Assembly (NCBI GenBank): GCA_014728145.1
Contig: WJMC01000141.1
Span: forward strand, 1 to 50,727
Length of the DNA: 50,727 nucleotides
Direction: 5' to 3'
Source of the DNA: Candidatus Zixiibacteriota bacterium
GTDB taxonomy: Bacteria > Zixibacteria > MSB-5A5 > JAABVY01
This document shows positions 4,427-42,544 of this stretch, one piece after another. Both the position numbers and the translations under genes were made by a program. Below the pieces are notes generated by a model. That model searched no databases. It was not told the DNA's origin and saw only the letters and a list, made by a program, of their open reading frames with translations. Positions within the stretch are counted from its first letter, which is position 1. Every line of letters starts with the position of its first letter.

Positions 4427-5899
4427 TTAGCTCTCGGAATTGGCCACGATCCGATTTATTATCTCGGTGGTAGACAATCCCGGCTGAAGTTTCACCCGTA
4501 CGACCTTTCCCCCGTTATTTTTGACCTGTTCCGCTCCGACTATTTCCGATATGGCGTAATCCGCACCCTTGGCGAGGATGTCCGGTTTGATATTTTTAAT
4601 CAATTCCAGCGGAGTTTCATCGTCAAAAGGGATCACGTAATCGACCGCCTCTAAAGCGGCCAGCACCCTGCTTCGGTCGGTATACGGTATAATCGGTCTT
4701 TCCGGTCCCTTGATCCGGTGGACCGAGCGGTCAGAATTCAAACCGACTATCAATATGTCGCCCAGCTTTTTACAATCGGTCAGAAGCTTTATATGACCGT
4801 AATGCAGGAGATCAAAAACTCCGTTTGTGAAAACAACTTTTTTGTCTTTCCATTGAGGTTTCAATGCCAGCAGTCTTTCCAGGCTGACAATTTTCCCGCT
4901 GGCCTCCCCTTTCAGGTAGCGCTTGATCTGGCTAAACAACTCAAACCTGCTGACCTGAGCTGTTCCCAGCTCCTCCACCACCATACCGGCCGCCTGGTTC
5001 GAAATAAACGCCGCCTCCGGCAGACTCGCCCCGGACGCGACCGCCGAGGTAAATGCGGCGATAACAGTGTCGCCGGCTCCGGTAACATCGAAAACCCTGC
5101 GTGCGACAGTATTGAGATAAGTCACCTGGCCCTCCTTTTCGAACAAAGCCATACCTTCGGCACCGCGTGTGATCAATATCGATTGGGCATTGAGTTCATC
5201 CAATAGCCCCCGGCCGACCTCCTGCAGATCATCGTCGGTGCGGATTTTTCTGCCGTAGGCAAACCCGGCTTCATGGTGGTTTGGCGTAATCACTGAAACA
5301 TCACGGTATGACCTGAAGTTGACGTCCTTGGGATCGACCGCCACGAAAATATCTTTTTTGCGACAGAGCCTGATGATTTCCTCCAGCAATCCGGGGGTGA
5401 TAACTCCCTTACCGTAATCGGATATTATAACACTGCTAATATCCGCCAGGCAGGCCTTGAAATTATCTATAAGCTTCTTTTCAACCTGCTCGGAAACCGG
5501 TCCGACCAGTTCATCATCAGCCCGTACAACCTGTTGATTTGAGGCGATTATCCGTGTTTTGACCGTTGTAGGTCGATTATCATCAACTACGATGTTAGAA
5601 AAGTCGATACCCCTGCTCTCCAAAAGCGAGTTGAACATGTTCGATTCAGAATCATGTCCGTAAACACCCAGCAAAACCGGCTCATCCCCCAGCCTCTTGA
5701 TATTCAACGCGACATTGGCCGCGCCGCCCAGACGCAATGTTTCATCGCGGATTTCCACAACAGGGACCGGCGCTTCGGGCGAAATCCTCTGCACATCACC
5801 GATCAGGTAGCGATCCAGCATCAGGTCGCCAATAATCACTATCTTACTGCGGCCGAAGTCAGCAAACAGCTGTTCTACGCGTAATTCGTCTATGTCCAT
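4427..5899 (-). CDS. hldE: bifunctional D-beta-D-heptose 7-phosphate kinase / D-beta-D-heptose 1-phosphate adenylyltransferase
   Basis: N-terminal PfkB-type kinase ('GGAANVA', 'DVTGAGDTV') fused to a C-terminal cytidylyltransferase ('VFTNGVFDLLHYGHIKLL'). Confidence 0.9.
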   Translation of the reverse strand: MDIDELRVEQLFADFGRSKIVIIGDLMLDRYLIGDVQRISPEAPVPVVEIRDETLRLGGAANVALNIKRLGDEPVLLGVYGHDSESNMFNSLLESRGIDFSNIVVDDNRPTTVKTRIIASNQQVVRADDELVGPVSEQVEKKLIDNFKACLADISSVIISDYGKGVITPGLLEEIIRLCRKKDIFVAVDPKDVNFRSYRDVSVITPNHHEAGFAYGRKIRTDDDLQEVGRGLLDELNAQSILITRGAEGMALFEKEGQVTYLNTVARRVFDVTGAGDTVIAAFTSAVASGASLPEAAFISNQAAGMVVEELGTAQVSRFELFSQIKRYLKGEASGKIVSLERLLALKPQWKDKKVVFTNGVFDLLHYGHIKLLTDCKKLGDILIVGLNSDRSVHRIKGPERPIIPYTDRSRVLAALEAVDYVIPFDDETPLELIKNIKPDILAKGADYAISEIVGAEQVKNNGGKVVRVKLQPGLSTTEIINRIVANSES

Positions 5900-5975
5900 C
5901 TCTTTATACCTTTTTTGAGGTTGACTTTGACTTAAATTGTAATACTTTTACCTCAAAACTTCAAGGAGGAAATCA

Positions 5976-6290
5976 ATGCAACAGCCTCAGGGCAGGCCGC
6001 AAAAGATTCAAGTCGAGATGGGGGATAAGCTTCCTGACGAGGTCTATTCCAACCTGCAATTTATAAATTTTTCCCCTGCGGAATTTATTGTTGACTTCGC
6101 GCGCTTCTCCCCGGGCCATACCAAAGCAAGGATTCATGCCCGGATTATAATCAACCCTACAACAGCTAAGGGACTTTTGAAAAACCTCGAGAACGCGGTT
6201 TCCAAATATGAAAACCAGTTCGGTGAAATAAAACTCTTTGGCCAGCAGGATAAAACCATCGGCTTCCAGTCACCTGACAAAGCCGAATGA
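5976..6290 (+). CDS. DUF3467-family small protein
   Basis: 'YSNLQFINFSPAEFIVDFARFSPG...ARIIINPTTAKGLLKNLENAVSKYENQFGEI' matches the DUF3467 pattern as I recall it. AGGAGG lies 7 nt upstream of the ATG. Confidence 0.6.
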   Translation: MQQPQGRPQKIQVEMGDKLPDEVYSNLQFINFSPAEFIVDFARFSPGHTKARIHARIIINPTTAKGLLKNLENAVSKYENQFGEIKLFGQQDKTIGFQSPDKAE

Positions 6291-6356
6291 TAATAATTTC
6301 TTGTAGCGAATATAAGTGATCTTATCTCGTGCATATATACGGAAAGGAAATTTAAT

Positions 6357-8105
6357 ATGGCAGAGGGCAAAATTGGCGCATTCACATTTGTTCTGCATTC
6401 CCATCTACCGTACGTGCTTTCGCATGGGCGCTGGCCGCATGGTACCGACTGGCTCAATGAGGCCTGTGCCGAAACCTATATTCCGATTCTGGATATGATC
6501 CATGAACTTGTCGACGAGGGCATTTCGCCTAAATTGACGATCGGGATTTCACCTGTTCTCTGCGAGCAACTGGGGCATAAATCATTCAAAAATGAATTTT
6601 GTGGTTACCTTGAAAACAAAATCCAGGCCGCCAATACGGACCGTGAAGTCTTCGACCGCCATGGCGACACGCATATGCTTCAGCTGGCCGAAATGTGGCA
6701 AAATTTCTATACCCGTACCAAAATTCACTTCGAAAAAAACTATCGCCATAACCTGCCCGAAGCGTTCAAAAAACTCCAGGACGACGGCCATATCGAAATT
6801 ATGACCTGCGGTGCAACTCATGGTTATATGCCGCTTTTGTCGCAGGACACGACGGTCCAGGCCCAGGTCAAACAGGCGGTGCAGTCCTATGAGAATTTCT
6901 TCGGATGTAAACCGCGCGGGATCTGGCTCCCCGAATGCGCTTACCGTCCACGCTATGAATGGGGTCCCCCGGTTGAAACCGACGCTCTCGGTAGCAGTCC
7001 CTATCTGCGTAAAGGTGTGGAGGAATTCCTGTCTGAAAACGGGATCGAATATTTCGTTATTGACAGCGCTCTGCTCAAAGGCGGGAAGGCAATCGGTGTC
7101 TATATCGATCGCTTCGATGCGCTCCAGAGACTCTGGGGCCAGTTCGAAAAAGGTTACAAACCCAGAAAAGAAAGCACCGAACGCTCCCCGCACGAGATCT
7201 ACCTGGTCTCCTCCGGGGACAGCAATAAAAAGCCGGTGGCGGTCTTCACGCGCGACCCTGATACCGGCCTGCAGGTCTGGTCGGGCGAACATGGTTATCC
7301 CGGCGACGGCAATTACCTCGATTTCCATAAAAAGCGGTTCCCCGGAGGCCATCGCTACTGGAGAGTAACTTCTCCCAAATCCGACCTGGCCGACAAGAAA
7401 GAATACAGTCCGGAAAAAGCCGCCCAGCGCATTCCGGAAAACGCCGGCCATTTCAAGTCACTTATTAAGGAAATCCTGACCCAGCACTACGGCAATTCCG
7501 TCAAACCCGGTTTCCTGTGTGCGCCGTTTGACTGCGAACTGTTCGGCCACTGGTGGTTCGAGGGTGTCAACTTCCTGAAACTGGTGGTTCAGTATGTTCA
7601 GCAGGATGAGAATATCGAGCTGGCAACCTGTAGTGAATACCTGGACCAGGCCAAACCGACCGATGTAATCTCGATTCCCGAGGGAAGCTGGGGCCAGGGA
7701 GGTTATCATTATATATGGCTGAACGAATGGACTGACTGGACCTGGAAACATATTTATCCCGATGAGCTCAAGATGAGTGAGCTGGCACGCAAATATGGTG
7801 ATTCAGACGACGATAAACTTCACAATATCCTCAAGCAGGCGGCGCGTGAATTGATGCTTCTGTGCGCCTCCGACTGGCAGTTTTTGATATCGACCTGGGC
7901 CGCACGTGATTACGCCGAAATGAGGCTGGCTGAACATCACGCCCACTTCAGGCGCCTGGCAAATATGGCTGAAGCCTACGCCGAAGGCCTAGATGTCGAC
8001 AAAGAAGACTGGACGTTTTTAGGCGACCTGGAATCGCAGGACAACATCTTTCCGAATATCGAACCAAAATGGTTCGCCGAAGTCGAATTCCCGGCTGATT
8101 CCTGA
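6357..8105 (+). CDS. GH57-family 1,4-alpha-glucan branching enzyme-like protein
   Basis: N-terminal 'FTFVLHSHLPYV..HGRWPHGTDWLNEACAETYIPILD', 'GIWLPECAY' (nucleophile-Glu region) and 'FDCELFGHWWFEG' are hallmarks of GH57 branching enzymes with the C-terminal helical (DUF1957-type) domain. Confidence 0.8.
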   Translation: MAEGKIGAFTFVLHSHLPYVLSHGRWPHGTDWLNEACAETYIPILDMIHELVDEGISPKLTIGISPVLCEQLGHKSFKNEFCGYLENKIQAANTDREVFDRHGDTHMLQLAEMWQNFYTRTKIHFEKNYRHNLPEAFKKLQDDGHIEIMTCGATHGYMPLLSQDTTVQAQVKQAVQSYENFFGCKPRGIWLPECAYRPRYEWGPPVETDALGSSPYLRKGVEEFLSENGIEYFVIDSALLKGGKAIGVYIDRFDALQRLWGQFEKGYKPRKESTERSPHEIYLVSSGDSNKKPVAVFTRDPDTGLQVWSGEHGYPGDGNYLDFHKKRFPGGHRYWRVTSPKSDLADKKEYSPEKAAQRIPENAGHFKSLIKEILTQHYGNSVKPGFLCAPFDCELFGHWWFEGVNFLKLVVQYVQQDENIELATCSEYLDQAKPTDVISIPEGSWGQGGYHYIWLNEWTDWTWKHIYPDELKMSELARKYGDSDDDKLHNILKQAARELMLLCASDWQFLISTWAARDYAEMRLAEHHAHFRRLANMAEAYAEGLDVDKEDWTFLGDLESQDNIFPNIEPKWFAEVEFPADS

Positions 8106-23621: not shown

Positions 23622-23648
23622 TTATCGGCACATAAACCTTATTGCTTA
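23622..23648 (-). promoter_or_regulatory. sigma-28 (FliA) type promoter
   Basis: Minus strand reads TAAG-N15-GCCGATAA (consensus TAAA-N15-GCCGATAA). The -10 box ends 11 nt before the ATG at 23610 and there is no SD sequence. Confidence 0.6.
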
Positions 23649-24427: not shown

Positions 24428-26182
24428 TCACCTCGCTTGCGGCAAAAGCAGAAACAGGCTGCTCATATCTGTATCACCCGATTCCACTCCGACCTGGCCG
24501 CCATTGTAATGTATGACTTCGATTGCCATGTTCAGTTTCAGTCCATGCCTGCCCACACGGGGATTGACCAAACCTGCCAGTACATCATTATTGCAGTTTT
24601 CCGTATCTTGTGGGCATATTACGGCTTTAATAGATTTATCGGCAGTATGAAATCCAATATTAACCGCTTGATCTGGATTAACTTTCTCTGAAAGTAGTGA
24701 CAAAATTGTGAACATCGCAAACTTGATCTGATCGCGCCGGGCATTCACCTTGAAATCATGTTCCATAAATGAACGATCTATTAGCGCGTTAAGGTTCAAT
24801 AAGCGCGCGTTCATCAATTCCAGCACTTCACGTATCAAAGCCGGGAGATTGAAATCAGACTTTTCCTGTGAAAATGATTTCGAGAAATCGAGCACCGTAT
24901 TGATGGCTTTTTCAAGTCTCTGGCATTCGGCAAAGATAATATCAGACTGTTCTCTAATATGTTCGGGCAGATCGTTTGATTTCTGCATGAGGGCAGCGAA
25001 CCCCCCGATTATCGAAGCCGGATTGCGCAGTTCATGAGCGATATCATAGGTCAATTCACTCCAGAGCGAGACTTTTTCGAGTTTCAACAATTCATCCTGG
25101 GCGTTGATCAGATTCTGGTTGGTAGCCTCGAGTTCGACTAAATTTGCCTCCAGGCTTTCGTACAGGCGGCTACGCTCAATTGCCACCGCGGCCTGGTCGG
25201 CAAATGTCTTCAGACGCGAGAGGTCCCCGCTTGAAATCGGACGGGCGGTGATCAGGTTGTCGGCAACGATCACACCCAGCACGTTGTCGCCGGTAACCAT
25301 AGGTACGGCCGCGAATTCACCTGCGTCATGAAGCAGGCATCCCCTGCAATCCAGCTCGCAGAGACAGTCAACGGCGCAGATGATTTCACCCCGTTTTTCG
25401 AACAGTACAGATTCGAGCAGTTTGCTGCCCGTCTTCAGTGGAATCTTCACGGAACGTATCTTTTTAGCCAGTCCTTCCGATGAATAACCGGGAATCCCGG
25501 CATATTGGTTGAGAATTTCTTCGAGACTTTTACCCTCGTCAGGCAATGATTCCCAGATCCTGCCGGCTTCGCTGGGTGTTGATGGTCCAATCGCGGAATG
25601 CCCCATCAGGCAGTTTTCCCGGTCGTCATACATAAACAGCATGGCACGATTGAATCCGAGCCCTTCTCTCGCTGTTACGGCCACAAGAATGATCTGCAGG
25701 ATTTCCTCGAAACTCGACTTCGACCCGAGGGCCGAGGCCACCTGGGATATCAAAGATATTTCATTATTCTTGCGGGTTAGCTGTTTCGAGAGACTGACTG
25801 TTTCACTCTGATCCTCGAAGAGATAGACACACAGGTTGTTTCCCCCGAGATCGAGCCGGTAGAATTTCAGACTGCAATGGCGTTTTTCACCTTTAAGGCT
25901 GGAGAACTGGAAATTGGCATCGGAGGCGATACTGCAGAGTCCACCCGTCCGATGAGAGGGCATTAGCTTAAATCCCAATACGGATTCTACCCGGCAGAGC
26001 TGATCGAATTGATCGTGATTATCTTCAGAGCCACCCAAAAAGCGAATAAACGCCGGGTTGTAATAGACACACTGCAGATCGTCATCCACGATCAGGCACG
26101 GTAATGAAATATTCTGTAGAAATCCGGTCAGAAGGCTGAGAGACTCCCTGCCGGTGCGAATTAGCGGAGTCAGTGACGGCAT
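24428..26182 (-). CDS. cytoplasmic PAS-like/GAF sensor histidine kinase with a divergent catalytic domain
   Basis: GAF-like 'ISQVASALGSKSSFEEILQIILVAVTAREGLGFNRAMLFMYDD', a coiled coil, and the H-box 'YDIAHELRNPASIIGGF'. The C-terminal HATPase-like region ('FTILSLLSEKV...VICPQDTEN...GRHGLKLNM') lacks a recognisable N-box Asn and the G1 DxGxG motif. Confidence 0.7.
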   Translation of the reverse strand: MPSLTPLIRTGRESLSLLTGFLQNISLPCLIVDDDLQCVYYNPAFIRFLGGSEDNHDQFDQLCRVESVLGFKLMPSHRTGGLCSIASDANFQFSSLKGEKRHCSLKFYRLDLGGNNLCVYLFEDQSETVSLSKQLTRKNNEISLISQVASALGSKSSFEEILQIILVAVTAREGLGFNRAMLFMYDDRENCLMGHSAIGPSTPSEAGRIWESLPDEGKSLEEILNQYAGIPGYSSEGLAKKIRSVKIPLKTGSKLLESVLFEKRGEIICAVDCLCELDCRGCLLHDAGEFAAVPMVTGDNVLGVIVADNLITARPISSGDLSRLKTFADQAAVAIERSRLYESLEANLVELEATNQNLINAQDELLKLEKVSLWSELTYDIAHELRNPASIIGGFAALMQKSNDLPEHIREQSDIIFAECQRLEKAINTVLDFSKSFSQEKSDFNLPALIREVLELMNARLLNLNALIDRSFMEHDFKVNARRDQIKFAMFTILSLLSEKVNPDQAVNIGFHTADKSIKAVICPQDTENCNNDVLAGLVNPRVGRHGLKLNMAIEVIHYNGGQVGVESGDTDMSSLFLLLPQAR

Positions 26183-34080: not shown

Positions 34081-34845
34081 CTACGTCAGTGCGAACTTCT
34101 CGCGAACCATGCCGCGCAGTTTCATAACCGCCTTGGTATGAATCTGCGAAACACGAGATTCGGAGATCGTCATGACCTCACCGATTTCCTTCAAAGTTAA
34201 CTCCTCGTAGTAGTACAAGGCGATGACCAGCTTCTCCTGCTCTGTCAAATTCGAAATCGCGATTGTCAGGTAAGCCCTGAGCTCATCTTTTTCGATCGCG
34301 TTCAGGATCGAATCCTTCGATTCAGCATGAATGGTTTCGACCCGGGGAATCTGGCGATTGTCCTCTTCCCGGAAGATCATCTCATCCAGTGACAACAGGA
34401 CGGTTGAATTGGAATCATCCATGGCCTTATGCAGATCTGCCAGGCTGATTTTGAGTTCGGTGGCCAGCTCGGTATCATTGGGTGACCGTCCGAGTTGTGC
34501 CTCCAGTTTAACCATTGCCCGTTCAATTACTCGAGTACGCGCGCGAGTTGAACGAGGCACCCAGTCCAGCGATCTCAATTCATCCAGTATCGCCCCCCTG
34601 ATTCTCGGGACAGCATAAGTCTCGAATTTGACTCCGCGCGAAGGATCGTAATTGGAGAAAGCCTCTATCAAGCCGATAACACCGGTATTGATCAGGTCTC
34701 CAATTTCGACTGATTTCGGAAAACCGACTGCCATCCGGCTGGCAACATTTCTCACTAGCGGAAGGTACTGTGAGATCAACTGGTCGCGCGCTTCCGGAGA
34801 GCCGGTTTGATTGTACGCCTCCCAAATTGCTTCCTTAGCTTTCAT
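34081..34845 (-). CDS. fliA: flagellar RNA polymerase sigma factor (sigma-28, FliA/WhiG/SigD)
   Basis: Region 2 'LISQYLPLVRNVASRM...DLINTGVIGLIEAFSNYDP..GVKFETYAVPRIRGAILDELR', and region 4 'LTEQEKLVIALYYYEELTLKEIGEVMTISESRVSQIHTKAV'. It follows flhF and flhG. Confidence 0.9.
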   Translation of the reverse strand: MKAKEAIWEAYNQTGSPEARDQLISQYLPLVRNVASRMAVGFPKSVEIGDLINTGVIGLIEAFSNYDPSRGVKFETYAVPRIRGAILDELRSLDWVPRSTRARTRVIERAMVKLEAQLGRSPNDTELATELKISLADLHKAMDDSNSTVLLSLDEMIFREEDNRQIPRVETIHAESKDSILNAIEKDELRAYLTIAISNLTEQEKLVIALYYYEELTLKEIGEVMTISESRVSQIHTKAVMKLRGMVREKFALT

Positions 34846-35783
34846 AAAGAATCGTTCCTTGATACTATGCGTGATGGATTGGTTACTCTATTACCAGGTT
34901 CCCCTGCATACTTTTTCACATTTCTTTTATCGGATTTGTGGGCCTGAGAGCTTAACATTAAATCGGAATTTATCTTATCCTCTTTAACCTCTGGCTTATT
35001 TTTTTCCGATGCCGGGGAATCTTCAAAAATACCCATAAGGGCGTTTTGCATATGTTTAAGAAATATACAGCTCTGGCCATCCTCCCGTAACAGGCTCTGT
35101 CTCATAAGGATAGACCGCAGGCTCTGATCATACGGGAGCCACAGGCTGTATTTTAGTTCAAGACCGAGAAAAGTATCTGCCATACGGCTGAATTTCTCGG
35201 CAGTGTTTTCACCTTCCTGCCCGGACTGGACCATATTTACCACCAGCACGAACTGCTGGATGGAGGTATTTTGGGCGGCGTTTTTCAAGACCGCGTAGCC
35301 GTCAGCCAGGGACGCCAGTTCAGGTGTCACTACAACCATAAACTCGTCGGCCAGAGAGGTAAAACTCTCGGTCCGGCTGGAAATACCGGCGGCGGTATCG
35401 AAAATGACCAGGTCGTAATCCTGGTGCAAACCGGAAAGTGCGAGTTTGAGATTGTTGTTTTCCGGATTATACTTGATTTGACTTTCGCTCAAGCCCGAGG
35501 CGGCTGGAAGAAGATCGAGGTTTTTTCCGACTTTAACCAGCACGTCGGCAAGAGCGCATTCTCCCGCCAGGAGATTTTCAACGGTGACTTCGGGAACAGA
35601 GTTGGTCAGAATATGCTGTGACCCGAGGCCCAGGTCGGTGTCGACCAGAAGCACCCTGCGGCCCGCAAAAGACAGCATATGCGCCATGCCCAGCGCTATG
35701 ACCGACTTGCCCACGCCCCCTTTGCCGGAGGAAACCGCCCAGACAGGAGGTAGATTGAACCTTCTGTTAACTGAGTTCGGCAT
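34842..35783 (-). CDS. flhG: MinD/ParA-type ATPase FlhG (YlxH/FleN)
   Basis: Deviant Walker A 'SGKGGVGKS' and 'VLLVDTDLGLG'. Position between flhF and fliA. ATGA overlap with fliA. Confidence 0.8.
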   Translation of the reverse strand: MPNSVNRRFNLPPVWAVSSGKGGVGKSVIALGMAHMLSFAGRRVLLVDTDLGLGSQHILTNSVPEVTVENLLAGECALADVLVKVGKNLDLLPAASGLSESQIKYNPENNNLKLALSGLHQDYDLVIFDTAAGISSRTESFTSLADEFMVVVTPELASLADGYAVLKNAAQNTSIQQFVLVVNMVQSGQEGENTAEKFSRMADTFLGLELKYSLWLPYDQSLRSILMRQSLLREDGQSCIFLKHMQNALMGIFEDSPASEKNKPEVKEDKINSDLMLSSQAHKSDKRNVKKYAGEPGNRVTNPSRIVSRNDSL

Positions 35784-36891
35784 TATGATCCTCCAGGTTT
35801 TCGAACAATTTCGCGGACAATTGAGTCAGGCTGGCAATCTGCAGATCACTGCTCAGGTTACGGCCCCATCCGAAGTACGACAGCTTCATCTTCAGGTAAG
35901 CCGCAATATTGAACGGCAGTCCATACGACTGGGTCTGATCCAGAAATGTGATCGCCACTTGAGTCGGTCCCAGCGGCTCATAGAAATCGAGCCAGTTGAC
36001 GACTTCCGACCAGCGGCTGTAGGCCGGCAGAACGAGGTGGATCTCATCCGGATTGAACAGGTCCAGCTTGGTGATCATCTTGTCCAGATCTTTATTGGAC
36101 CCGAATGGCAATCCCTTGGTATCGGCCAGGACGACATTAAATTCCTTTTCTTCTTCCTCATCCGGATCGAGCCAGTCGGCTTCCTCGATATGCTGAACCT
36201 TAAGAAGCCGGGCATAGATTTCCATATCCTGCGATGCGGTCGGTTTGTAGTCATCCAGGTTCACCAGTGTCGTCTTGACGTTTTGCTGAAACACCAGACG
36301 GGCACCTACTTTTGCCAGAAGCGAGCTCTTCCCGCATCCGGGAGGGCCGATAAAGGCTACCTTGTGGCAACCCGTAGCAAACATCCGTACCGGTTGCGGC
36401 TTTTCACACATTGACAGGAGTTTGACGCGCAGAAGCTCGAGGTTGCGAATGTAATTGCGCTGTTCCTCTTCAGTGGCTTCGGCAAACAAACGCGCGATCA
36501 GGTCCTGCTCCAGATCCTGACGTGACAGGTAAGAACAGACCGGTTTGGCCTCGGTCGGCGCTTGTAGAAGCGTCTTGATCTCTTTCTGGGATTCGATCAG
36601 GTAAGAGATATCTTTTTCAAATCTCCTGATCACCAGACCGACATCGGACAAAAGCCTGCGATCCTCACTGGTCAGCCTGTGCGCCTTTTTGTCTTCTTCC
36701 GCTTTGGTGCGGCTCTTCAGGGGCACATCGCGACCAGCGGTGATCTCAAACCTTTTGATTGGTCTTGAACCCGGTATGCCCTTGTCCTCGAATACTCGCG
36801 TATTGAGTATTACGGCATCGGTACCGAGTTCCTTTTTCACCTGTTGCATGGCTTCCTGCATGGAGCCAGCTTGAAAGTTTTTAATCTGCAT
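35767..36891 (-). CDS. flhF: flagellar biosynthesis SRP-type GTPase FlhF
   Basis: N-terminal 'MQIKNFQAGSMQEAMQQVKKELGTDAVILNTR', G1 'GPPGCGKSSLLAKV', G3-like 'LADTKG', and 'ITFLDQT'. Position after flhA. Confidence 0.8.
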   Translation of the reverse strand: MQIKNFQAGSMQEAMQQVKKELGTDAVILNTRVFEDKGIPGSRPIKRFEITAGRDVPLKSRTKAEEDKKAHRLTSEDRRLLSDVGLVIRRFEKDISYLIESQKEIKTLLQAPTEAKPVCSYLSRQDLEQDLIARLFAEATEEEQRNYIRNLELLRVKLLSMCEKPQPVRMFATGCHKVAFIGPPGCGKSSLLAKVGARLVFQQNVKTTLVNLDDYKPTASQDMEIYARLLKVQHIEEADWLDPDEEEEKEFNVVLADTKGLPFGSNKDLDKMITKLDLFNPDEIHLVLPAYSRWSEVVNWLDFYEPLGPTQVAITFLDQTQSYGLPFNIAAYLKMKLSYFGWGRNLSSDLQIASLTQLSAKLFENLEDHNAELS

Positions 36892-38965
36892 TCTCTATCT
36901 CCACTACTCCGATTGAATGAACTTCTACTTCAGGTAAGATTTCGTTATAAGAGAGCACCACTAACTGTCGCAGGCTGGGACTCAGGAACTTCCACAGGGC
37001 AAGCCTGAGATTGGCGGCCACCAAAAAGATCGGAGGTTCGCCCAATGAGGTGAATTTCTCCGCCTGCTTGACACAGGAGTTGATGACCTTTTCGCCCAGC
37101 TCGGGCGGAAGGATCAGGCTCAGACCGGATTTCTGGATATTGACAGAATCAGCCAATATCTTTTCCAGACCTGGATCGAGTGTCAACACCTTCAGGTTGC
37201 CGTCCAGGCTTAGATACTGGTCTGTTATAATCCGGCGCATCGAGAAACGGCAGTACTCGGCCAAAAGATCAGCATCCTTGGACTGCGGTCCGTAGTCGTT
37301 TAATGTCTCCAGGATGCTCTGCAGATCCTTGATCGGAATCCTTTCGCGCAGAAGATTCTGGAGGACTTTCTGGAGCACGCCCAGGCTGACAATTTCCGGG
37401 ATCGTTTCCGTAACCACCGCGGGATAGTCTTTCTTAGCGATCTCGAGCAGGTTCTGCACATCCTGGCGCGACATGATTTCAGCCGCATGTTGCTTAATTA
37501 TTTCAGTCAGGTGCGTGGCGATGACTGAGGAAGTCTCCACTACAGTATAGCCCTTCATCTCGGCCATTTCCTTGTAGTTCGGGATGATCCACTTGGATTT
37601 CAGTCCGAAGGCCGGATCGACAGTCTTGAAGCCTTCGAGATCATCCTCAGCGGAGCCAGAATTGATCGCCAAGAGGTGATCCATCATCAATTCATAGCCG
37701 TCTATCTTTACACCTTTGAGCTTGATTATATACTGGTTCGGTTTGAGTTGGATATTGTCACGGATTCTGATCGGCGGTACGATCATCCCCATATCGGATG
37801 CGATCTGCCTGCGGATCATGCCCACCCTCTCGAGCAGGTCACCGCCCTGCGAGCTGTCTACCAGAGGAATCAGGCCATAGCCTATTTCGATCTCGAGCGT
37901 ATCGAGTCGCAGGAAATCTTCCGCCTGAGCCTGCGGTTCCGAATCATCTTCAGGCTTGTGGATCTCTTCCTCTGCCGCCCTCTCGGCCTTATCAGCTTTT
38001 TGTGTGCGCAGAAGCAGGAATCCGAACAAGCCAATCAGCACTCCCAGAAATCCGAACGGCAAAGTCGGCAGGCCCGGCATGACAGCGAATAAAAACAAGA
38101 TTCCGGAGGTAGTCAAAATCGCACGCGGTCGATTGGAAAGCTGACTCAGGAGATCCTCGCCGAGGTTTGCCTTGGCCGCCGCCCGTGTCACCAGGATGCC
38201 GGCCGAGGTCGATACGATCAAAGCCGGGATCTGGGTCACCAGACCATCACCCACAGTCAGCAATGTGTATGTCGTCAGAGCTTCGCTCAGGTCCATCCCG
38301 CGCTGGAGTGCGCCGATAATCAAACCACCGACGATATTGATCGTTGTAATAATGATACCAGCTACGGCGTCACCGCGCACGAACTTCGAGGCACCGTCCA
38401 TAGCCCCGTAAAAGTCTGCTTCATTAGTGATCTGTTCCCGCCGTTTAAGGGCTTCACGCTCATCAATAAGACCGGCATTCAAGTCGGCATCGATCGCCAT
38501 CTGCTTACCAGGCATGGCATCCAGGGTGAAACGAGCCGCTACCTCTGAAATTCGCGTGGCACCTTTGGTAATCACCACGAACTGGATGATGACCAGGATC
38601 AGGAAGATGATCAATCCGACAACATAGTTGCCCTTGACGACGAAATTCCCGAAGGCGTAGATCACCTCACCGGCGTACGCATCGCCCAAAATCAGCCTCG
38701 TGGAGGCGACATTCAAGGCCAACCGCAACAGGGTTACAACCAGAAGCAGTCCCGGAAATACCGAGAGTTCCATCGGTTTATTGATGAACATGGTGGTCAA
38801 AAGGATTACCAGCGCGAAGGCGATATTGAAACTCAGGAGGACATCCAGCATCCCCGGCGCGGTCGGTATAACCAGTATCAATACAATACCGATTACCGCC
38901 ACACCCATGACTATATCAGCCTGGGAAGACAACTGCGACAGTATGCCTTTACGTTTTTTCGCCAT
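36881..38965 (-). CDS. flhA: flagellar type III export gate protein FlhA
   Basis: 694 aa, FHIPEP family. N-terminal TM region with 'FPGLLLVVTLLRLALNVASTRLIL', 'GAMDGASKFVRGDA', and a large cytoplasmic C-domain. Confidence 0.95.
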   Translation of the reverse strand: MAKKRKGILSQLSSQADIVMGVAVIGIVLILVIPTAPGMLDVLLSFNIAFALVILLTTMFINKPMELSVFPGLLLVVTLLRLALNVASTRLILGDAYAGEVIYAFGNFVVKGNYVVGLIIFLILVIIQFVVITKGATRISEVAARFTLDAMPGKQMAIDADLNAGLIDEREALKRREQITNEADFYGAMDGASKFVRGDAVAGIIITTINIVGGLIIGALQRGMDLSEALTTYTLLTVGDGLVTQIPALIVSTSAGILVTRAAAKANLGEDLLSQLSNRPRAILTTSGILFLFAVMPGLPTLPFGFLGVLIGLFGFLLLRTQKADKAERAAEEEIHKPEDDSEPQAQAEDFLRLDTLEIEIGYGLIPLVDSSQGGDLLERVGMIRRQIASDMGMIVPPIRIRDNIQLKPNQYIIKLKGVKIDGYELMMDHLLAINSGSAEDDLEGFKTVDPAFGLKSKWIIPNYKEMAEMKGYTVVETSSVIATHLTEIIKQHAAEIMSRQDVQNLLEIAKKDYPAVVTETIPEIVSLGVLQKVLQNLLRERIPIKDLQSILETLNDYGPQSKDADLLAEYCRFSMRRIITDQYLSLDGNLKVLTLDPGLEKILADSVNIQKSGLSLILPPELGEKVINSCVKQAEKFTSLGEPPIFLVAANLRLALWKFLSPSLRQLVVLSYNEILPEVEVHSIGVVEIENAD

Positions 38966-38967
38966 TC

Positions 38968-40032
38968 TTAAGCCTTACCTTTCAACCTGTAAACATAGGC
39001 CAGCACCTCGGCCACCGCCTTGTAGAGATTGGCGGGGACAGTCATGCCGACTTCCACAGCTTCATAGAGGGAGCGCGCCAGCGGTTTATTTTCGACTACA
39101 GGGACATCGTTTTCTTTCGCGATTGCCTTTATCTTATCAGCGATCAGGCGTTTACCCTTGGCAACCACGGTCGGAGCATCCATCTCTTCAGCATCGTACT
39201 TAAGGGCAACCGCAATATGTGTCGGGTTGGTTACTATCACGTCAGCGTCAGGCACAGCACCCATCATGCGTGCGTTAGCCATCTCGCGCTGAACTTTGCG
39301 GATACGATTTTTAGTATCGGGGGAGCCCTCGTATTTTTTCATCTCATCTTTGACATCCTGCTTGGACATCCGGAGTTCTTTTTCGTAATCATATTTTTGG
39401 AAAGCGTAATCGGCGGCGGCGATGACGATAAATGCCAGGCAGAGCTTGAGTACTACCCTGAAAGCGGCAGAACCGATAAAAGTGAGGATACTGCCGACCT
39501 CCGAATCGGCCAGTGGAACAACGTTTTTGAATTCGTGAGTGATAGCTAAGTATCCGATCAGTCCGATCGCGGCCAGTTTCAGAAAATCGCGCGCCAGATG
39601 AAACAGTGTGCGACCTGAAAAGAGCCGTTTGAAGCCCTTGGCCAGATTCAACCGCTCGAACTTGGGCTCGATCGCCTTGGTGGACAACATCGGCCCCACC
39701 TGCAAAAGAGATATTCCCGCCGCCATCACAGCCACGGTTATAAAGATCGGCAACAGCACCATGGCGTACTGGGCCAGTATCTGCGTAAAAAATTTAGTGA
39801 AACTGTCGGCGGACATGCTGAATGACGGCGCATTGGAAAAGAGATGCTTCTGCAAATTAGTAAGCCGGGCGAAACCGCTCGGTATAAAGAAAAACAACGC
39901 CACCGCTCCGGACATGAGGATCACCAGAGAAGAGGTCTCCTGACTACGGCAGACCTTGCCTTCTTTGCGCGCCTCCTGTCGCTTTCGTGGAGTTGCTGGT
40001 TCTGTTTTCTCCTGAAAACTCTCTTCCGCCAC
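38968..40032 (-). CDS. flhB: flagellar export switch protein FlhB
   Basis: 'EEKTEPATPRKRQEARKEGKV' N-terminus, 'MSKQDVKDEMKKYEGSPDTKNRIR', and the NPTH autocleavage site 'VIVTNPTHIAVAL'. GTG start. Confidence 0.95.
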   Translation of the reverse strand: MAEESFQEKTEPATPRKRQEARKEGKVCRSQETSSLVILMSGAVALFFFIPSGFARLTNLQKHLFSNAPSFSMSADSFTKFFTQILAQYAMVLLPIFITVAVMAAGISLLQVGPMLSTKAIEPKFERLNLAKGFKRLFSGRTLFHLARDFLKLAAIGLIGYLAITHEFKNVVPLADSEVGSILTFIGSAAFRVVLKLCLAFIVIAAADYAFQKYDYEKELRMSKQDVKDEMKKYEGSPDTKNRIRKVQREMANARMMGAVPDADVIVTNPTHIAVALKYDAEEMDAPTVVAKGKRLIADKIKAIAKENDVPVVENKPLARSLYEAVEVGMTVPANLYKAVAEVLAYVYRLKGKA

Positions 40033-40035
40033 CTT

Positions 40036-40815
40036 TTACCTCGCCAGATAGCTGATAAGTTTCAATGACTCGGTGTTGATCATCCCCAGCGCCTTGCGGA
40101 ATACCAGGGCAAAAATCGGCACAGATGCGCCGGTAAAAAACAATCCCAGAGCAATCTTGATAGGAAAACCGACGATGAAGATGTTCATCTGGGGCACCGT
40201 CCGGGATATCACCCCCAGGGCGACATCGGTCAAAATCAGAGCCGCCATTACCGGTGAAGCGATCTTTATGCCGATCACGAATATTCCCGTTATGATTGAG
40301 GCCAGTTCGGTGGTGACGGCAAATCGAAATACCGCTTCGTTGAGCGGTACCAGCTTGTAGCTCATCACCAAAGCCTGCAGTATCATGTGATGACCGTTCA
40401 GAATAAAGAACATCAAAGTCGCCAGGATATACTTGAATTGTGACATAATCGAAACCTGGTCCTGGGTAACCGGATCGATAACATTGACGATCATGAAACC
40501 CATCTGGAAACCGATAAAAGCTCCTGCCATCTGAACCCCGATAAACAGGCTGGCAAAGACGAATCCGATCAGCATACCGAGAGCGACTTCACGCAGTCCC
40601 AGGGCCACAAGGTCAAGAAGGTTAGTTGGCGCTGTATAGCCACCGAGAGTGACCAGCGGGCTGATCATAGCCGCCAGAATCAGCGCGAACATAATCTTCA
40701 TGTGAGGAGGCATGCCTCTTTGCGAGAATACCGGTGCGATAAAAAACAGTCCGGATATCCTGAAAAAGACGAATAAAACCGTCTCCAGATTATATTGTAA
40801 CAGGTCCAGTATCAA
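40036..40815 (-). CDS. fliR: flagellar export apparatus protein FliR
   Basis: 259-aa polytopic membrane protein ('VFFRISGLFFIAPVFS', 'FIVGFPIKIALGL'), immediately upstream of flhB. TTG start with GGAG 5 nt upstream. Confidence 0.85.
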   Translation of the reverse strand: MILDLLQYNLETVLFVFFRISGLFFIAPVFSQRGMPPHMKIMFALILAAMISPLVTLGGYTAPTNLLDLVALGLREVALGMLIGFVFASLFIGVQMAGAFIGFQMGFMIVNVIDPVTQDQVSIMSQFKYILATLMFFILNGHHMILQALVMSYKLVPLNEAVFRFAVTTELASIITGIFVIGIKIASPVMAALILTDVALGVISRTVPQMNIFIVGFPIKIALGLFFTGASVPIFALVFRKALGMINTESLKLISYLAR

Positions 40816-40855
40816 GTTAACTCCAGGCTACGAGTTTTTTCCTATTCTGCTTTTT

Positions 40856-40871
40856 AGCAAGCACAGTGCCA
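40856..40871 (-). promoter_or_regulatory. sigma-54 (RpoN) -24/-12 promoter upstream of fliR
   Basis: Minus strand reads TGGCAC-TGTGC-TTGCT (consensus TGGCAC-N5-TTGCW), 40 nt upstream of the fliR start. It lies in an otherwise unexplained 181-nt gap between fliQ and fliR. Confidence 0.7.
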
Positions 40872-40996
40872 TTTTGATACAGATATGCTAAGTTATTGCG
40901 AATAAACCAGTTAAAGTGCGCGGGGCTAATTTTGAAGCGCTTTGAGACGATTCGTTTTGGAAATATTTTCTTTTATATAAGGAAAAGAATACCCCC

Positions 40997-41266
40997 CTAA
41001 CCGGTAACCGTCGGAATTGACATGAAGAGATTACGGGTAAAGTCTACCACAACTGTAATGATCCAGGGGAGAAAAACCGCCAGAGCTATCGCAACTGCCA
41101 CGATCTTCGGAATGAAGGTCAAAGTCATCTCGTGGACCTGGGTGACGGCCTGTAACACCGATATAAAAAGTCCGACTATCAATCCAAAAAGCAACATCGG
41201 CGCGGCCACCATCAGGGTTACCGATACGGCCTCTCTTCCGAGCGCCAGGACGAATTCCATAGTCAT
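40997..41266 (-). CDS. fliQ: flagellar export apparatus protein FliQ
   Basis: 89 aa with two TM helices ('LGREAVSVTLMVAAPMLL..LIVGLFISVLQAVTQVHEMTLTFIPK'). GGAGG SD site. Follows fliP. Confidence 0.9.
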   Translation of the reverse strand: MTMEFVLALGREAVSVTLMVAAPMLLFGLIVGLFISVLQAVTQVHEMTLTFIPKIVAVAIALAVFLPWIITVVVDFTRNLFMSIPTVTG

Positions 41267-41277
41267 AGCTTACCTCC

Positions 41278-42036
41278 TCAATAAAATGATCCCACCAGCG
41301 ATTGAATGATCAGGTACCATCCATCTACCAGGACAAACAGCAGTATCTTGAACGGCAAAGCCACCATGATCGGCGGTAACATCATCATCCCCATAGACAT
41401 CAAAACCGAGGCAACCACCATATCGATCACCAGAAACGGCACAAATATTATAAATGAGATCTGAAACGCAGTACGCAGTTCCGAGATAAGAAAACTCGGA
41501 ATCAGGATATAGGTCGGCAGGTCGTCGCGATTCTGTGGCTTGGGCAAATTGGCAAAGGATGCAAACAACTCAATATCCTGTTCACGGGTCTGCTTGAACA
41601 TGAAATCGCGAATCGGCTGGATACCGACATCGTAGGCATCCTCGCGCGTCATTTCACCGTCGATATATGGCTTGACGGCATCACTGTAAACCTGGTTAAA
41701 AACCGGCGCCATCACAAAAATCGTCAGTATCAGGGCGATACCCATCAGGACCTGAGCGGGGGGCATTTGAGGTGTCCCCATCGCCTGCCGGGTCATCATG
41801 ATTACCACCACGATCCTCACGAATGAAGTGACCATGACCAGGATAGTCGGCACCAGAGCCAGGACCGTCAGGGCGATCAGTATTTTGAGGGTGGTCGAAA
41901 AATCCTGAGGGGAATCGGATTCATCCAGGGACAATGACAGCTTAGGCACACCCTGGGCTTGAAGATCGACCGGCACAATTGACAGGACCAGGAGCACTAA
42001 TACCAGCACTCCTACAAGTTTTGGTTTCTGCATCAT
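41278..42036 (-). CDS. fliP: flagellar export apparatus protein FliP
   Basis: Signal-like N-terminus 'MMQKPKLVGVLVLVLLVLS', plus 'TSFVRIVVVIMMTRQAMGTPQMPP' and 'FLVIDMVVASVLMSMGMMMLPP'. The start is set at the ATG at 42036, just after the fliO stop. The track's 59-codon extension overlaps fliO and is rejected. Confidence 0.9.
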   Translation of the reverse strand: MMQKPKLVGVLVLVLLVLSIVPVDLQAQGVPKLSLSLDESDSPQDFSTTLKILIALTVLALVPTILVMVTSFVRIVVVIMMTRQAMGTPQMPPAQVLMGIALILTIFVMAPVFNQVYSDAVKPYIDGEMTREDAYDVGIQPIRDFMFKQTREQDIELFASFANLPKPQNRDDLPTYILIPSFLISELRTAFQISFIIFVPFLVIDMVVASVLMSMGMMMLPPIMVALPFKILLFVLVDGWYLIIQSLVGSFY

Positions 42037-42037
42037 T

Positions 42038-42544
42038 TTAATTCTCTTGCGGATTTTCAACCTGATGGTTGAACATGGGCAAATGTTGCCTGGCATCGTT
42101 AAAAAATGTCTTGAAGCTGAACCCCTTGCTCTCGGGACTTGAAGCTGTCTGGGGCTTGATAAACTCCTGATCGGAGACATCGGCCACCAGGTTGACCGCC
42201 TGTTCGGTGACACCCACCAGCAGGTATTTCTTCTCCACCTTTAAAAGGCAGACCTGCTTTTTGGGTGAGATAAAATGACGGTCGACAACTTCAATAGCTC
42301 CGGACAGCGACTGCCTGCCCATTCTCGCTGTGGAAAGCCGCTTGAGCACAAAAACCGACAGGTAGATCAAGGCAATGATCAGAAGCAAAGCCAGCCCCAT
42401 TTTCAGAAGCGTAGATCCAATCTCACCGCTGAATTCGGGCGAAAACGGCTGAGCACCGGCCTCGGTTGTATCTGCCTGAGAGAACGCGGCTTTATACCAG
42501 CACAATCCGATTGTTACTGTTAAAAAGACCGTTAGTTTTTTCAT
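42038..42544 (-). CDS. fliO: flagellar biosynthesis protein FliO (FliZ)
   Basis: Small protein with one strongly hydrophobic helix ('LLKMGLALLLIIALIYLSVFVLKRL'), between fliN and fliP. ATGA overlap with fliN. Confidence 0.65.
   Translation of the reverse strand: MKKLTVFLTVTIGLCWYKAAFSQADTTEAGAQPFSPEFSGEIGSTLLKMGLALLLIIALIYLSVFVLKRLSTARMGRQSLSGAIEVVDRHFISPKKQVCLLKVEKKYLLVGVTEQAVNLVADVSDQEFIKPQTASSPESKGFSFKTFFNDARQHLPMFNHQVENPQEN

Follow-up and report, generated by a model that had tools for sequence, protein, structure and literature searches.

What separates fliQ from fliR in the flagellar gene cluster of a Candidatus Zixiibacteriota bacterium, and what might the DNA between them do? The window analyzed here, 50.7 kb (50,727 nucleotides), is the entire contig C46 of a 3.12-Mb, 255-contig MAG (G000). 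Pfam assignments on its minus strand give the gene order fliK, flgD, flgE, flbD, fliL, fliM, fliN, fliO, fliP, fliQ, gap, fliR, flhB, flhA, flhF, flhG, and fliA; the remaining flagellar genes of this genome lie on other contigs. fliP (41278-42213) is followed by fliQ (40997-41266; 89 amino acids; Bac_export_3, E 6.8e-27), the final gene ahead of the gap. The initial annotation had described a 181-nt separation of fliQ and fliR, and this is what we found (40816-40996, coding strand minus). On its far side is fliR (40036-40815, minus strand; 259 amino acids; Bac_export_1, E 3.1e-65), which begins with TTG. A Shine-Dalgarno sequence, GGAG, was read from the sequence 5 nt ahead of this start (40821-40824, minus strand), and the FliR proteins of relatives align to that of the window from residue 2. 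flhB (38968-40032), flhA (36881-38965), flhF (35767-36891), flhG (34842-35783), and fliA (34081-34845), all on the minus strand and assigned by Pfam, are packed tightly after fliR over 34081-40032, their open reading frames (ORFs) overlapping or only a few bases apart, and are presumed to form the rest of the fliR transcription unit.

The gap very probably contains a real sigma-54 promoter together with activator-binding sites. A -24/-12 element, TGGCAC-TGTGC-TTGC-T, occupies 40856-40871 on the minus strand, with TGGCAC-N5-TTGC proper at 40857-40871. Its GG (40870-40869) and GC (40858-40857) are exactly 10 nt apart, and it matches the consensus TGGCAC-N5-TTGCW at 10/10 positions and has T at the W position as well. 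This is the only exact match to TGGCAC-N5-TTGC in the window, where 0.10 is expected from shuffled sequence; with one mismatch allowed there are three matches against 2.75 expected, so the loose motif is uninformative. The initial annotation had placed the element 40 nt before fliR, and the measured distance from the C of TTGC to the TTG start agrees well, at 41 nt, with the Shine-Dalgarno sequence lying in between. Intergenic, co-oriented with the gene, and a short distance from it, the motif has the geometry of the other exact sites in this genome. Transcription is predicted to start at about 40845.

The genome contains rpoN, which the initial annotation had named for a genome-wide search, as two tandem genes on contig C61 (Sigma54_DBD E 5e-56 and 3e-50; ORFs of ~475 amino acids), along with 21 proteins with strong Sigma54_activat matches. 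Of the 41 class genomes that were sampled, 39 were found to have rpoN, the two without it being 83% and 52% complete. Exact TGGCAC-N5-TTGC occurs 11 times in the genome, where ~6 would be expected from length alone. Eight of these 11 matches are intergenic, i.e., they fall in the ~9% of the genome that is free of long ORFs, with calls outside the window resting on a crude map of long ORFs, which take up 91% of the genome; six of the eight, the fliR site among them, lie 34 to 61 nt before a co-oriented ORF. On this placement, the exact matches in the genome behave like real promoters.

The tandem arrangement of rpoN is an observation in its own right. The two copies (C61:3657-5084 and 5115-6545, both minus strand; locus L138) are ~50% identical and lie downstream of an lptB-like gene. 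Among the 40 other class genomes, 37 have a single Sigma54_DBD match, one (G021) has two fragments, and two incomplete genomes have none; from this comparison the pair looks specific to the lineage of G000. A sigma-28-like element, TAAA-N15-GCCGATAA, is found at C61:6591-6617, within the 64-nt gap that precedes the first copy. It is unlikely that the two copies are specialized for promoters ending in TTGC and TTGA, respectively, because relatives with a single rpoN show both variants.

The long gap and its promoter are conserved among relatives. FliR was detected in 26 of the 41 class genomes, and in all 26 of these it is separated from fliQ by 168 to 311 nt. A GGCA-type GG-N10-GC motif is present in 24 of the 26 gaps, and the other two (L049 and L054) contain TGGCAC-N5-TTGT or TTGA. 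When one genome per GTDB species was scanned, 80 FliR loci were obtained; all 20 of those titled Zixibacteria and possessing both fliQ and fliR keep the long gap and have the promoter, which was scored by eye in one of them (L093). These counts take in genomes that, being related, are not independent of one another. The relaxed pattern GG[CAT]A-N6-TTG[CAT], with a per-gap chance of ~0.03 by our own calculation from equal base frequencies, matches 47/47 distinct gaps compared with ~1.3 by chance; this set of 47 was partly assembled by gap length, and the unbiased counts are those of the 26 class genomes and of the 20 loci chosen by title. The resulting consensus, GGCA(C/T)-N5-TTGC(T/A), lies 32 to 63 nt before the estimated fliR start, and the spacing of GG and TTG is exact in every lineage. 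One Zixibacteria clade reads TTGA at -12, as does the flgB promoter of G000. Compared with the canonical TTGC, TTGA at this position is unusual for sigma-54 promoters.

Outgroups, including KSB1, Gemmatimonadota, Eisenbacteria, Syntrophales/Smithella, and Bacillota, have estimated gaps of -17 to ~126 nt, mostly of at most 67 nt, so that the earlier premise of fliQ and fliR being normally contiguous is roughly correct. The only outgroup matches to the relaxed pattern are in three short-gap loci (L086, L114, and L116), which are weak exceptions, and in L125, where the two genes are an aberrant 2.7 kb apart. Genome content, the intergenic placement of exact motifs genome-wide, and phylum-wide conservation at the same position strongly support the initial proposal of a sigma-54 promoter splitting fliPQ from fliR-flhBAFG-fliA.

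Another Zixibacteria clade has a further sequence feature in its fliQ-fliR gaps, one that the window lacks. In 10 loci (L085, L093, L095, L097, L099, L105, L109, L118, L123, and L131), a nearly invariant block of ~35 nt, with a consensus of roughly TTAAAGTCTTGACGAATAACCCGTACTGTAGGTA, directly follows the TTGA-type promoter and extends to the fliR start. Possible roles are those of a leader element or of a second binding site.

A sigma-54 promoter of this kind raises the matter of where an activator would bind. The initial annotation had pointed to an 8-bp palindrome, AAGCGCTT, as a possible enhancer-binding-protein site. The palindrome is indeed present (40935-40942), with 64 nt between it and the motif downstream, and occurs four times in the window compared with 0.96 expected, but it is not conserved: in an alignment with the three closest, family-level relatives (L030 to L032) it sits in an indel and is absent from all three. 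We therefore rejected it as an enhancer. The conserved parts of that alignment are the promoter and a block beside the fliQ stop.

When the gaps were anchored on the -24 GG, a different element emerged, the 13-mer GGAAA-N3-TTTCC, which recurs usually as two copies 20 to 22 bp apart. In the window, box 1 (GGTATTCTTTTCC; 40981-40993, minus strand) is a degenerate copy centered 116 nt upstream of the GG, and box 2 (AGAAAATATTTCC; 40959-40971, minus strand), with one mismatch, is centered 94 nt upstream of it and 22 bp from box 1. Scored with at most two mismatches over the interval from -50 to -170, at least one box is found in 45 of the 47 Zixibacteria gaps, against 1.7 expected from mononucleotide shuffles, and two or more are found in 35. 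Counted upstream from the GG, the box centers cluster near 84, 95, 104, 116, and 125 nt, in steps of ~10.5 bp, approximately one helical turn. Enhancer-binding-protein sites classically consist of tandem inverted repeats ~100 bp upstream of a promoter and in phase with it. With inverted repeats in tandem at 94 and 116 nt, helical phasing, and occurrence at both the fliR and the flgB promoter, the GGAAA-N3-TTTCC pair is a candidate upstream activator sequence to which an enhancer-binding protein may bind.

The flgB copy of this module is on contig C2. There, flgB, the first gene of the flagellar operon, comes after rpoA-rplQ; a terminator is followed by two boxes and, 94 nt on, by TGGCAC-N5-TTGA just before flgB. 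A strict combined pattern (half-box, 80 to 100 nt, TGGCAY-N5-TTGM) hits only the fliR and flgB sites in G000 and nothing in the reversed control. It has no matches in nonflagellate relatives, nor in the flagellate G001, and is thus uninformative in these genomes. Boxes at the same phased distances are found in 20 of 23 upstream regions of relatives' flgB genes with a detectable promoter (0.96 expected); three flgB regions were scored without a promoter, which was cut off by or at the end of the extracted stretch. A third site with boxes (~5915-5942) and TGGCAC-N5-TTGC at the same spacing was found at C156:5811-5826 on the minus strand (locus L135), upstream of a polysaccharide cluster encoding Wzz-like, UDP-GlcNAc 2-epimerase, and heparinase-II/III-like proteins. 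The shared spacing suggests that surface polysaccharide may be coregulated with flagella.

Promoter-like elements were also observed at other motility genes. A flagellin-like gene of 255 to 262 amino acids on C233 (locus L137:2898-2946) carries a sigma-54-type promoter of its own, GGCAT-N5-TTGCT, ~31 nt ahead of an AAGGAG-ATG start and without GGAAA-N3-TTTCC boxes. The large flagellin gene on C100 has GCCGATTA, which resembles a sigma-28 -10 element, at the contig edge. Taken together, these two elements suggest that control of the flagellins may be divided between sigma-54 and sigma-28, the situation in Campylobacter and Vibrio. The initial annotation had held that the window carries sigma-28 promoters as well, and sigma-28-like sites are indeed present downstream of fliA. 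Two of them, 23622-23648 and 24636-24662 on the minus strand, are of the TAA-N-GCCGATAA type with two mismatches to the full consensus; the former is just upstream of a CheB-like gene, the latter is inside the 3' end of a GAF histidine kinase gene, and both belong to the signaling block downstream of fliA.

Which of the 21 activators would read the boxes? A FleQ/FlrA-type activator had been suggested at the outset, but it appears unlikely, because none of the 21 carries the FleQ N-terminal domain (PF06490) above the cut-off. The sole PF06490 match at the cut-off, with 22 bits (C43:16242), is in a 275-amino-acid frame that is not a sigma-54 activator. Phylogenetic profiling made use of G004 and G005 (94% and 83% complete), members of the sister genus to G000 in which fliR and flgB were not found. 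Their congeners G001 to G003 have both genes, a distribution consistent with the recent loss of flagella within a genus. Comparing the activator sets of G000, flagellate G001, and nonflagellate G004 left two activators that are present in G001 and have no close orthologue in G004, a REC-AAA protein on C42 and an AAA-HTH protein on C3; neither type tracks flagella across the class. The C42 activator, with its adjacent 748-amino-acid histidine kinase, was rejected, since flagellate G003 and most flagellate families lack close orthologues of it, and the C3 activator was rejected as well, being found in only 8 of the 41 class genomes.

The C3 activator (C3:2652-4139; locus L212) has an unassigned 175-amino-acid N terminus and is encoded between a PAS-HisKA-REC-GGDEF protein and a pair of TPR and TPR-HD (HD_5) proteins, and an exact TGGCAC-N5-TTGC is found just downstream, at C3:4329-4343. 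This locus may be a c-di-GMP-linked sigma-54 module.

Gene order points to another candidate. In three relatives (G017, G034, and G015), the stretch directly upstream of motA-motB, the boxes and promoter, and flgB encodes a PAS-HisKA kinase together with a REC-AAA-HTH_8 activator. The G000 orthologue of this pair is on C191, a 3-kb contig, with 56% identity compared with 46% for the next paralogue. As the C191-type orthologue is present in all 41 class genomes, flagellate or not, the pair is a weak candidate, and we are doubtful that it is the activator system of the module.

From these observations we infer, with a probability of roughly 0.85, that the gap serves as a complete sigma-54 control region, dependent on an activator, from which transcription of fliR-flhBAFG-fliA is re-initiated, most likely as an internal booster. 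In the proposed mechanism, sigma-54 RNA polymerase would bind the -24/-12 element at 40856-40871, and a dimeric or oligomeric AAA+ enhancer-binding protein would occupy the two boxes, which lie ~95 and 116 bp upstream and share one face of the helix. Through DNA looping, the activator would touch the closed complex and use ATP for its opening, and transcription would proceed from ~40845 through fliR, flhB, flhA, flhF, flhG, and fliA. The output of the promoter would most likely be added to read-through from upstream, because there is no conserved terminator after fliQ, and such a booster would set the dose of the export-gate proteins, the placement proteins FlhF and FlhG, and sigma-28. Since the flgB operon begins with the same module of boxes plus promoter, the two units are probably turned on by a single activator.

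The closest competitor retains the promoter and changes its rank: fliR would head a separate operon, upstream transcription would end after fliQ, and the sigma-54 promoter would be primary, the sole source of fliR-fliA mRNA. The length and conservation of the gap agree with this, as do terminator-like hairpins after fliQ in 6 of the 47 gaps and, in the window, the ability of the AT-rich region of boxes 1 and 2 to form a 7-bp hairpin. However, most of the hairpin matches are the boxes themselves, a G+C-rich hairpin plus T-run was not found in the remaining 41 gaps, the terminator scan of the window gap found none, and the RNA of the gap folds no better than shuffled sequences (z = 0.46). No conserved terminator was thus detected by either the scan of the window gap or the hairpin survey of the 47 gaps. 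Rho-dependent or weak termination after fliQ is possible, and we regard a separate operon as improbable, though it is the alternative to be taken most seriously.

Factors other than sigma-54 and its activator might read the elements, for instance at a promoter of the housekeeping or FCB type that has an operator for a repressor, or at a nucleoid-protein site, in which case the resemblance to -24/-12 would be coincidental. Variation at -12 among clades (TTGC, TTGA, and TTGT) and the strongly conserved block just 3' of the motif in one clade could be understood in this way; what makes it very unlikely is the invariant GG/TTG spacing, an extended consensus (GGCAY-N5-TTGCW) that is the canonical one for sigma-54, the overwhelmingly promoter-like positions of the exact matches in G000, and the near-universal occurrence of rpoN in the class (39/41). 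That the gap encodes a small RNA or a small peptide is more improbable still. There is a 59-amino-acid antisense ORF (40712-40891, plus strand), as well as a sense ORF of 14 codons that begins at the A preceding TGGCAC, but neither is positive evidence, and the sense ATG is not conserved, relatives reading CGGCAC. An RNA element was rejected, since the gap has no noteworthy Rfam match and, by the folding score given above, no excess structure. Least probable of all is a chance match in a nonfunctional spacer. The one-mismatch count in the window, which barely exceeds expectation, would fit it, but the exact-match expectation is low and the position and orientation of the motif and its upstream boxes are conserved phylum-wide; the comparative data effectively refute it.

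The preferred reading, an internal sigma-54 booster, would give the conserved 170- to 310-nt interruption of the otherwise compact fliPQR unit a regulatory cause. It also defines a testable cis-regulatory module, a promoter plus a 13-bp box with phased spacing, and since this module is kept across a candidate phylum, it offers a means of predicting the flagellar regulon and of seeking its activator. A broader scenario, which we advance tentatively and rate slightly below even odds, is that Zixibacteria run a flagellar superoperon of Firmicute/spirochaete gene order under sigma-54 logic of the proteobacterial style. One NtrC-type activator acting through phased boxes would fire both flgB and the lineage-specific re-initiation at fliQ/fliR, would set the dosage of FlhF, FlhG, and FliA independently of the rod, hook, and C-ring genes, and may also control the C156 polysaccharide cluster. 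If true, the FCB group would possess a sigma-54 flagellar hierarchy that evolved separately and has a newly defined activator-binding site.

In Proteobacteria and Campylobacterota, flagellar genes are well known to be under sigma-54 control, and our literature search found no paper on flagellar regulation in Zixibacteria. The fliQ-fliR gap adds a new, well-supported case to this known type of control. The fliQ/fliR junction is not known to have a promoter in Pseudomonas or Vibrio, where fliLMNOPQR-flhB is one unit; nor is GGAAA-N3-TTTCC known as a FleQ or FlrA site, or flhA, flhF, or flhG as sigma-54 dependent in Campylobacter. The parallel that the initial annotation had drawn with all three genera is thus loose for Campylobacter and holds for Pseudomonas and Vibrio, PflhA and PflhF of Pseudomonas putida being both FleQ and sigma-54 dependent (bioRxiv 10.1101/2021.08.29.457346). 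The class II promoters of Pseudomonas and Vibrio (PflhA, PflhF, PfliL, and PflgB, among others), which depend on sigma-54 and on FleQ or FlrA, likewise place a -24/-12 element before genes for the export gate, flhF/flhG, and fliA. Also shared are internal promoters within long flagellar units and a sigma-28 gene encoded downstream, which gives a sigma-54-to-sigma-28 cascade (10.1101/2021.08.29.457346). In contrast, the Zixibacteria promoter is at the fliQ/fliR junction, within the gene order of the Bacillus/spirochaete fla operon, an activator with the FleQ domain was not found in G000, and the box sequence differs as well. FliQ, FliR, and FlhB are among the genes that a recent survey associates with sigma-54, mainly in Proteobacteria and Desulfobacteria; Zixibacteria go unmentioned there (PMC12316311).

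In polar flagellates that encode FlhF and FlhG, the two-component systems FlrBC, FleSR, and FlgSR, which have NtrC-type activators, drive the rod and hook genes, from flgB onward, with sigma-54 and a response-regulator activator (PMC7064773). The kinase and REC-AAA-HTH pair directly upstream of motAB-flgB in three Zixibacteria resembles this arrangement. A difference is that expression of the export-gate genes comes earlier there and does not depend on the two-component regulators, whereas the Zixibacteria module also precedes fliR-flhBA; the candidate pair is also present in nonflagellate relatives and is therefore not flagellum specific. In layout, the fliR boxes, ~95 to 125 bp upstream of -24 and phased on one face of the helix, are similar to the NtrC-type sites ~100 to 140 bp upstream of glnAp2-like promoters, which likewise consist of two inverted repeats two helical turns apart; the sequence of the repeats differs.

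The gene order itself is that of the Bacillus subtilis fla/che operon, which also has the sigma-28 gene at its far 3' end. The B. subtilis operon has sigma-A and sigma-D promoters rather than sigma-54 promoters, and is not known to have a promoter at fliQ/fliR. Cozy and Kearns reportedly described, in 2010, a position effect in this 27-kb operon as well as minor internal promoters. In an operon of this order, an internal promoter would raise the dose of that distal gene, and the fliQ-fliR gap of Zixibacteria would be an example of how very long fla-type operons are re-primed upstream of the sigma-28 gene.
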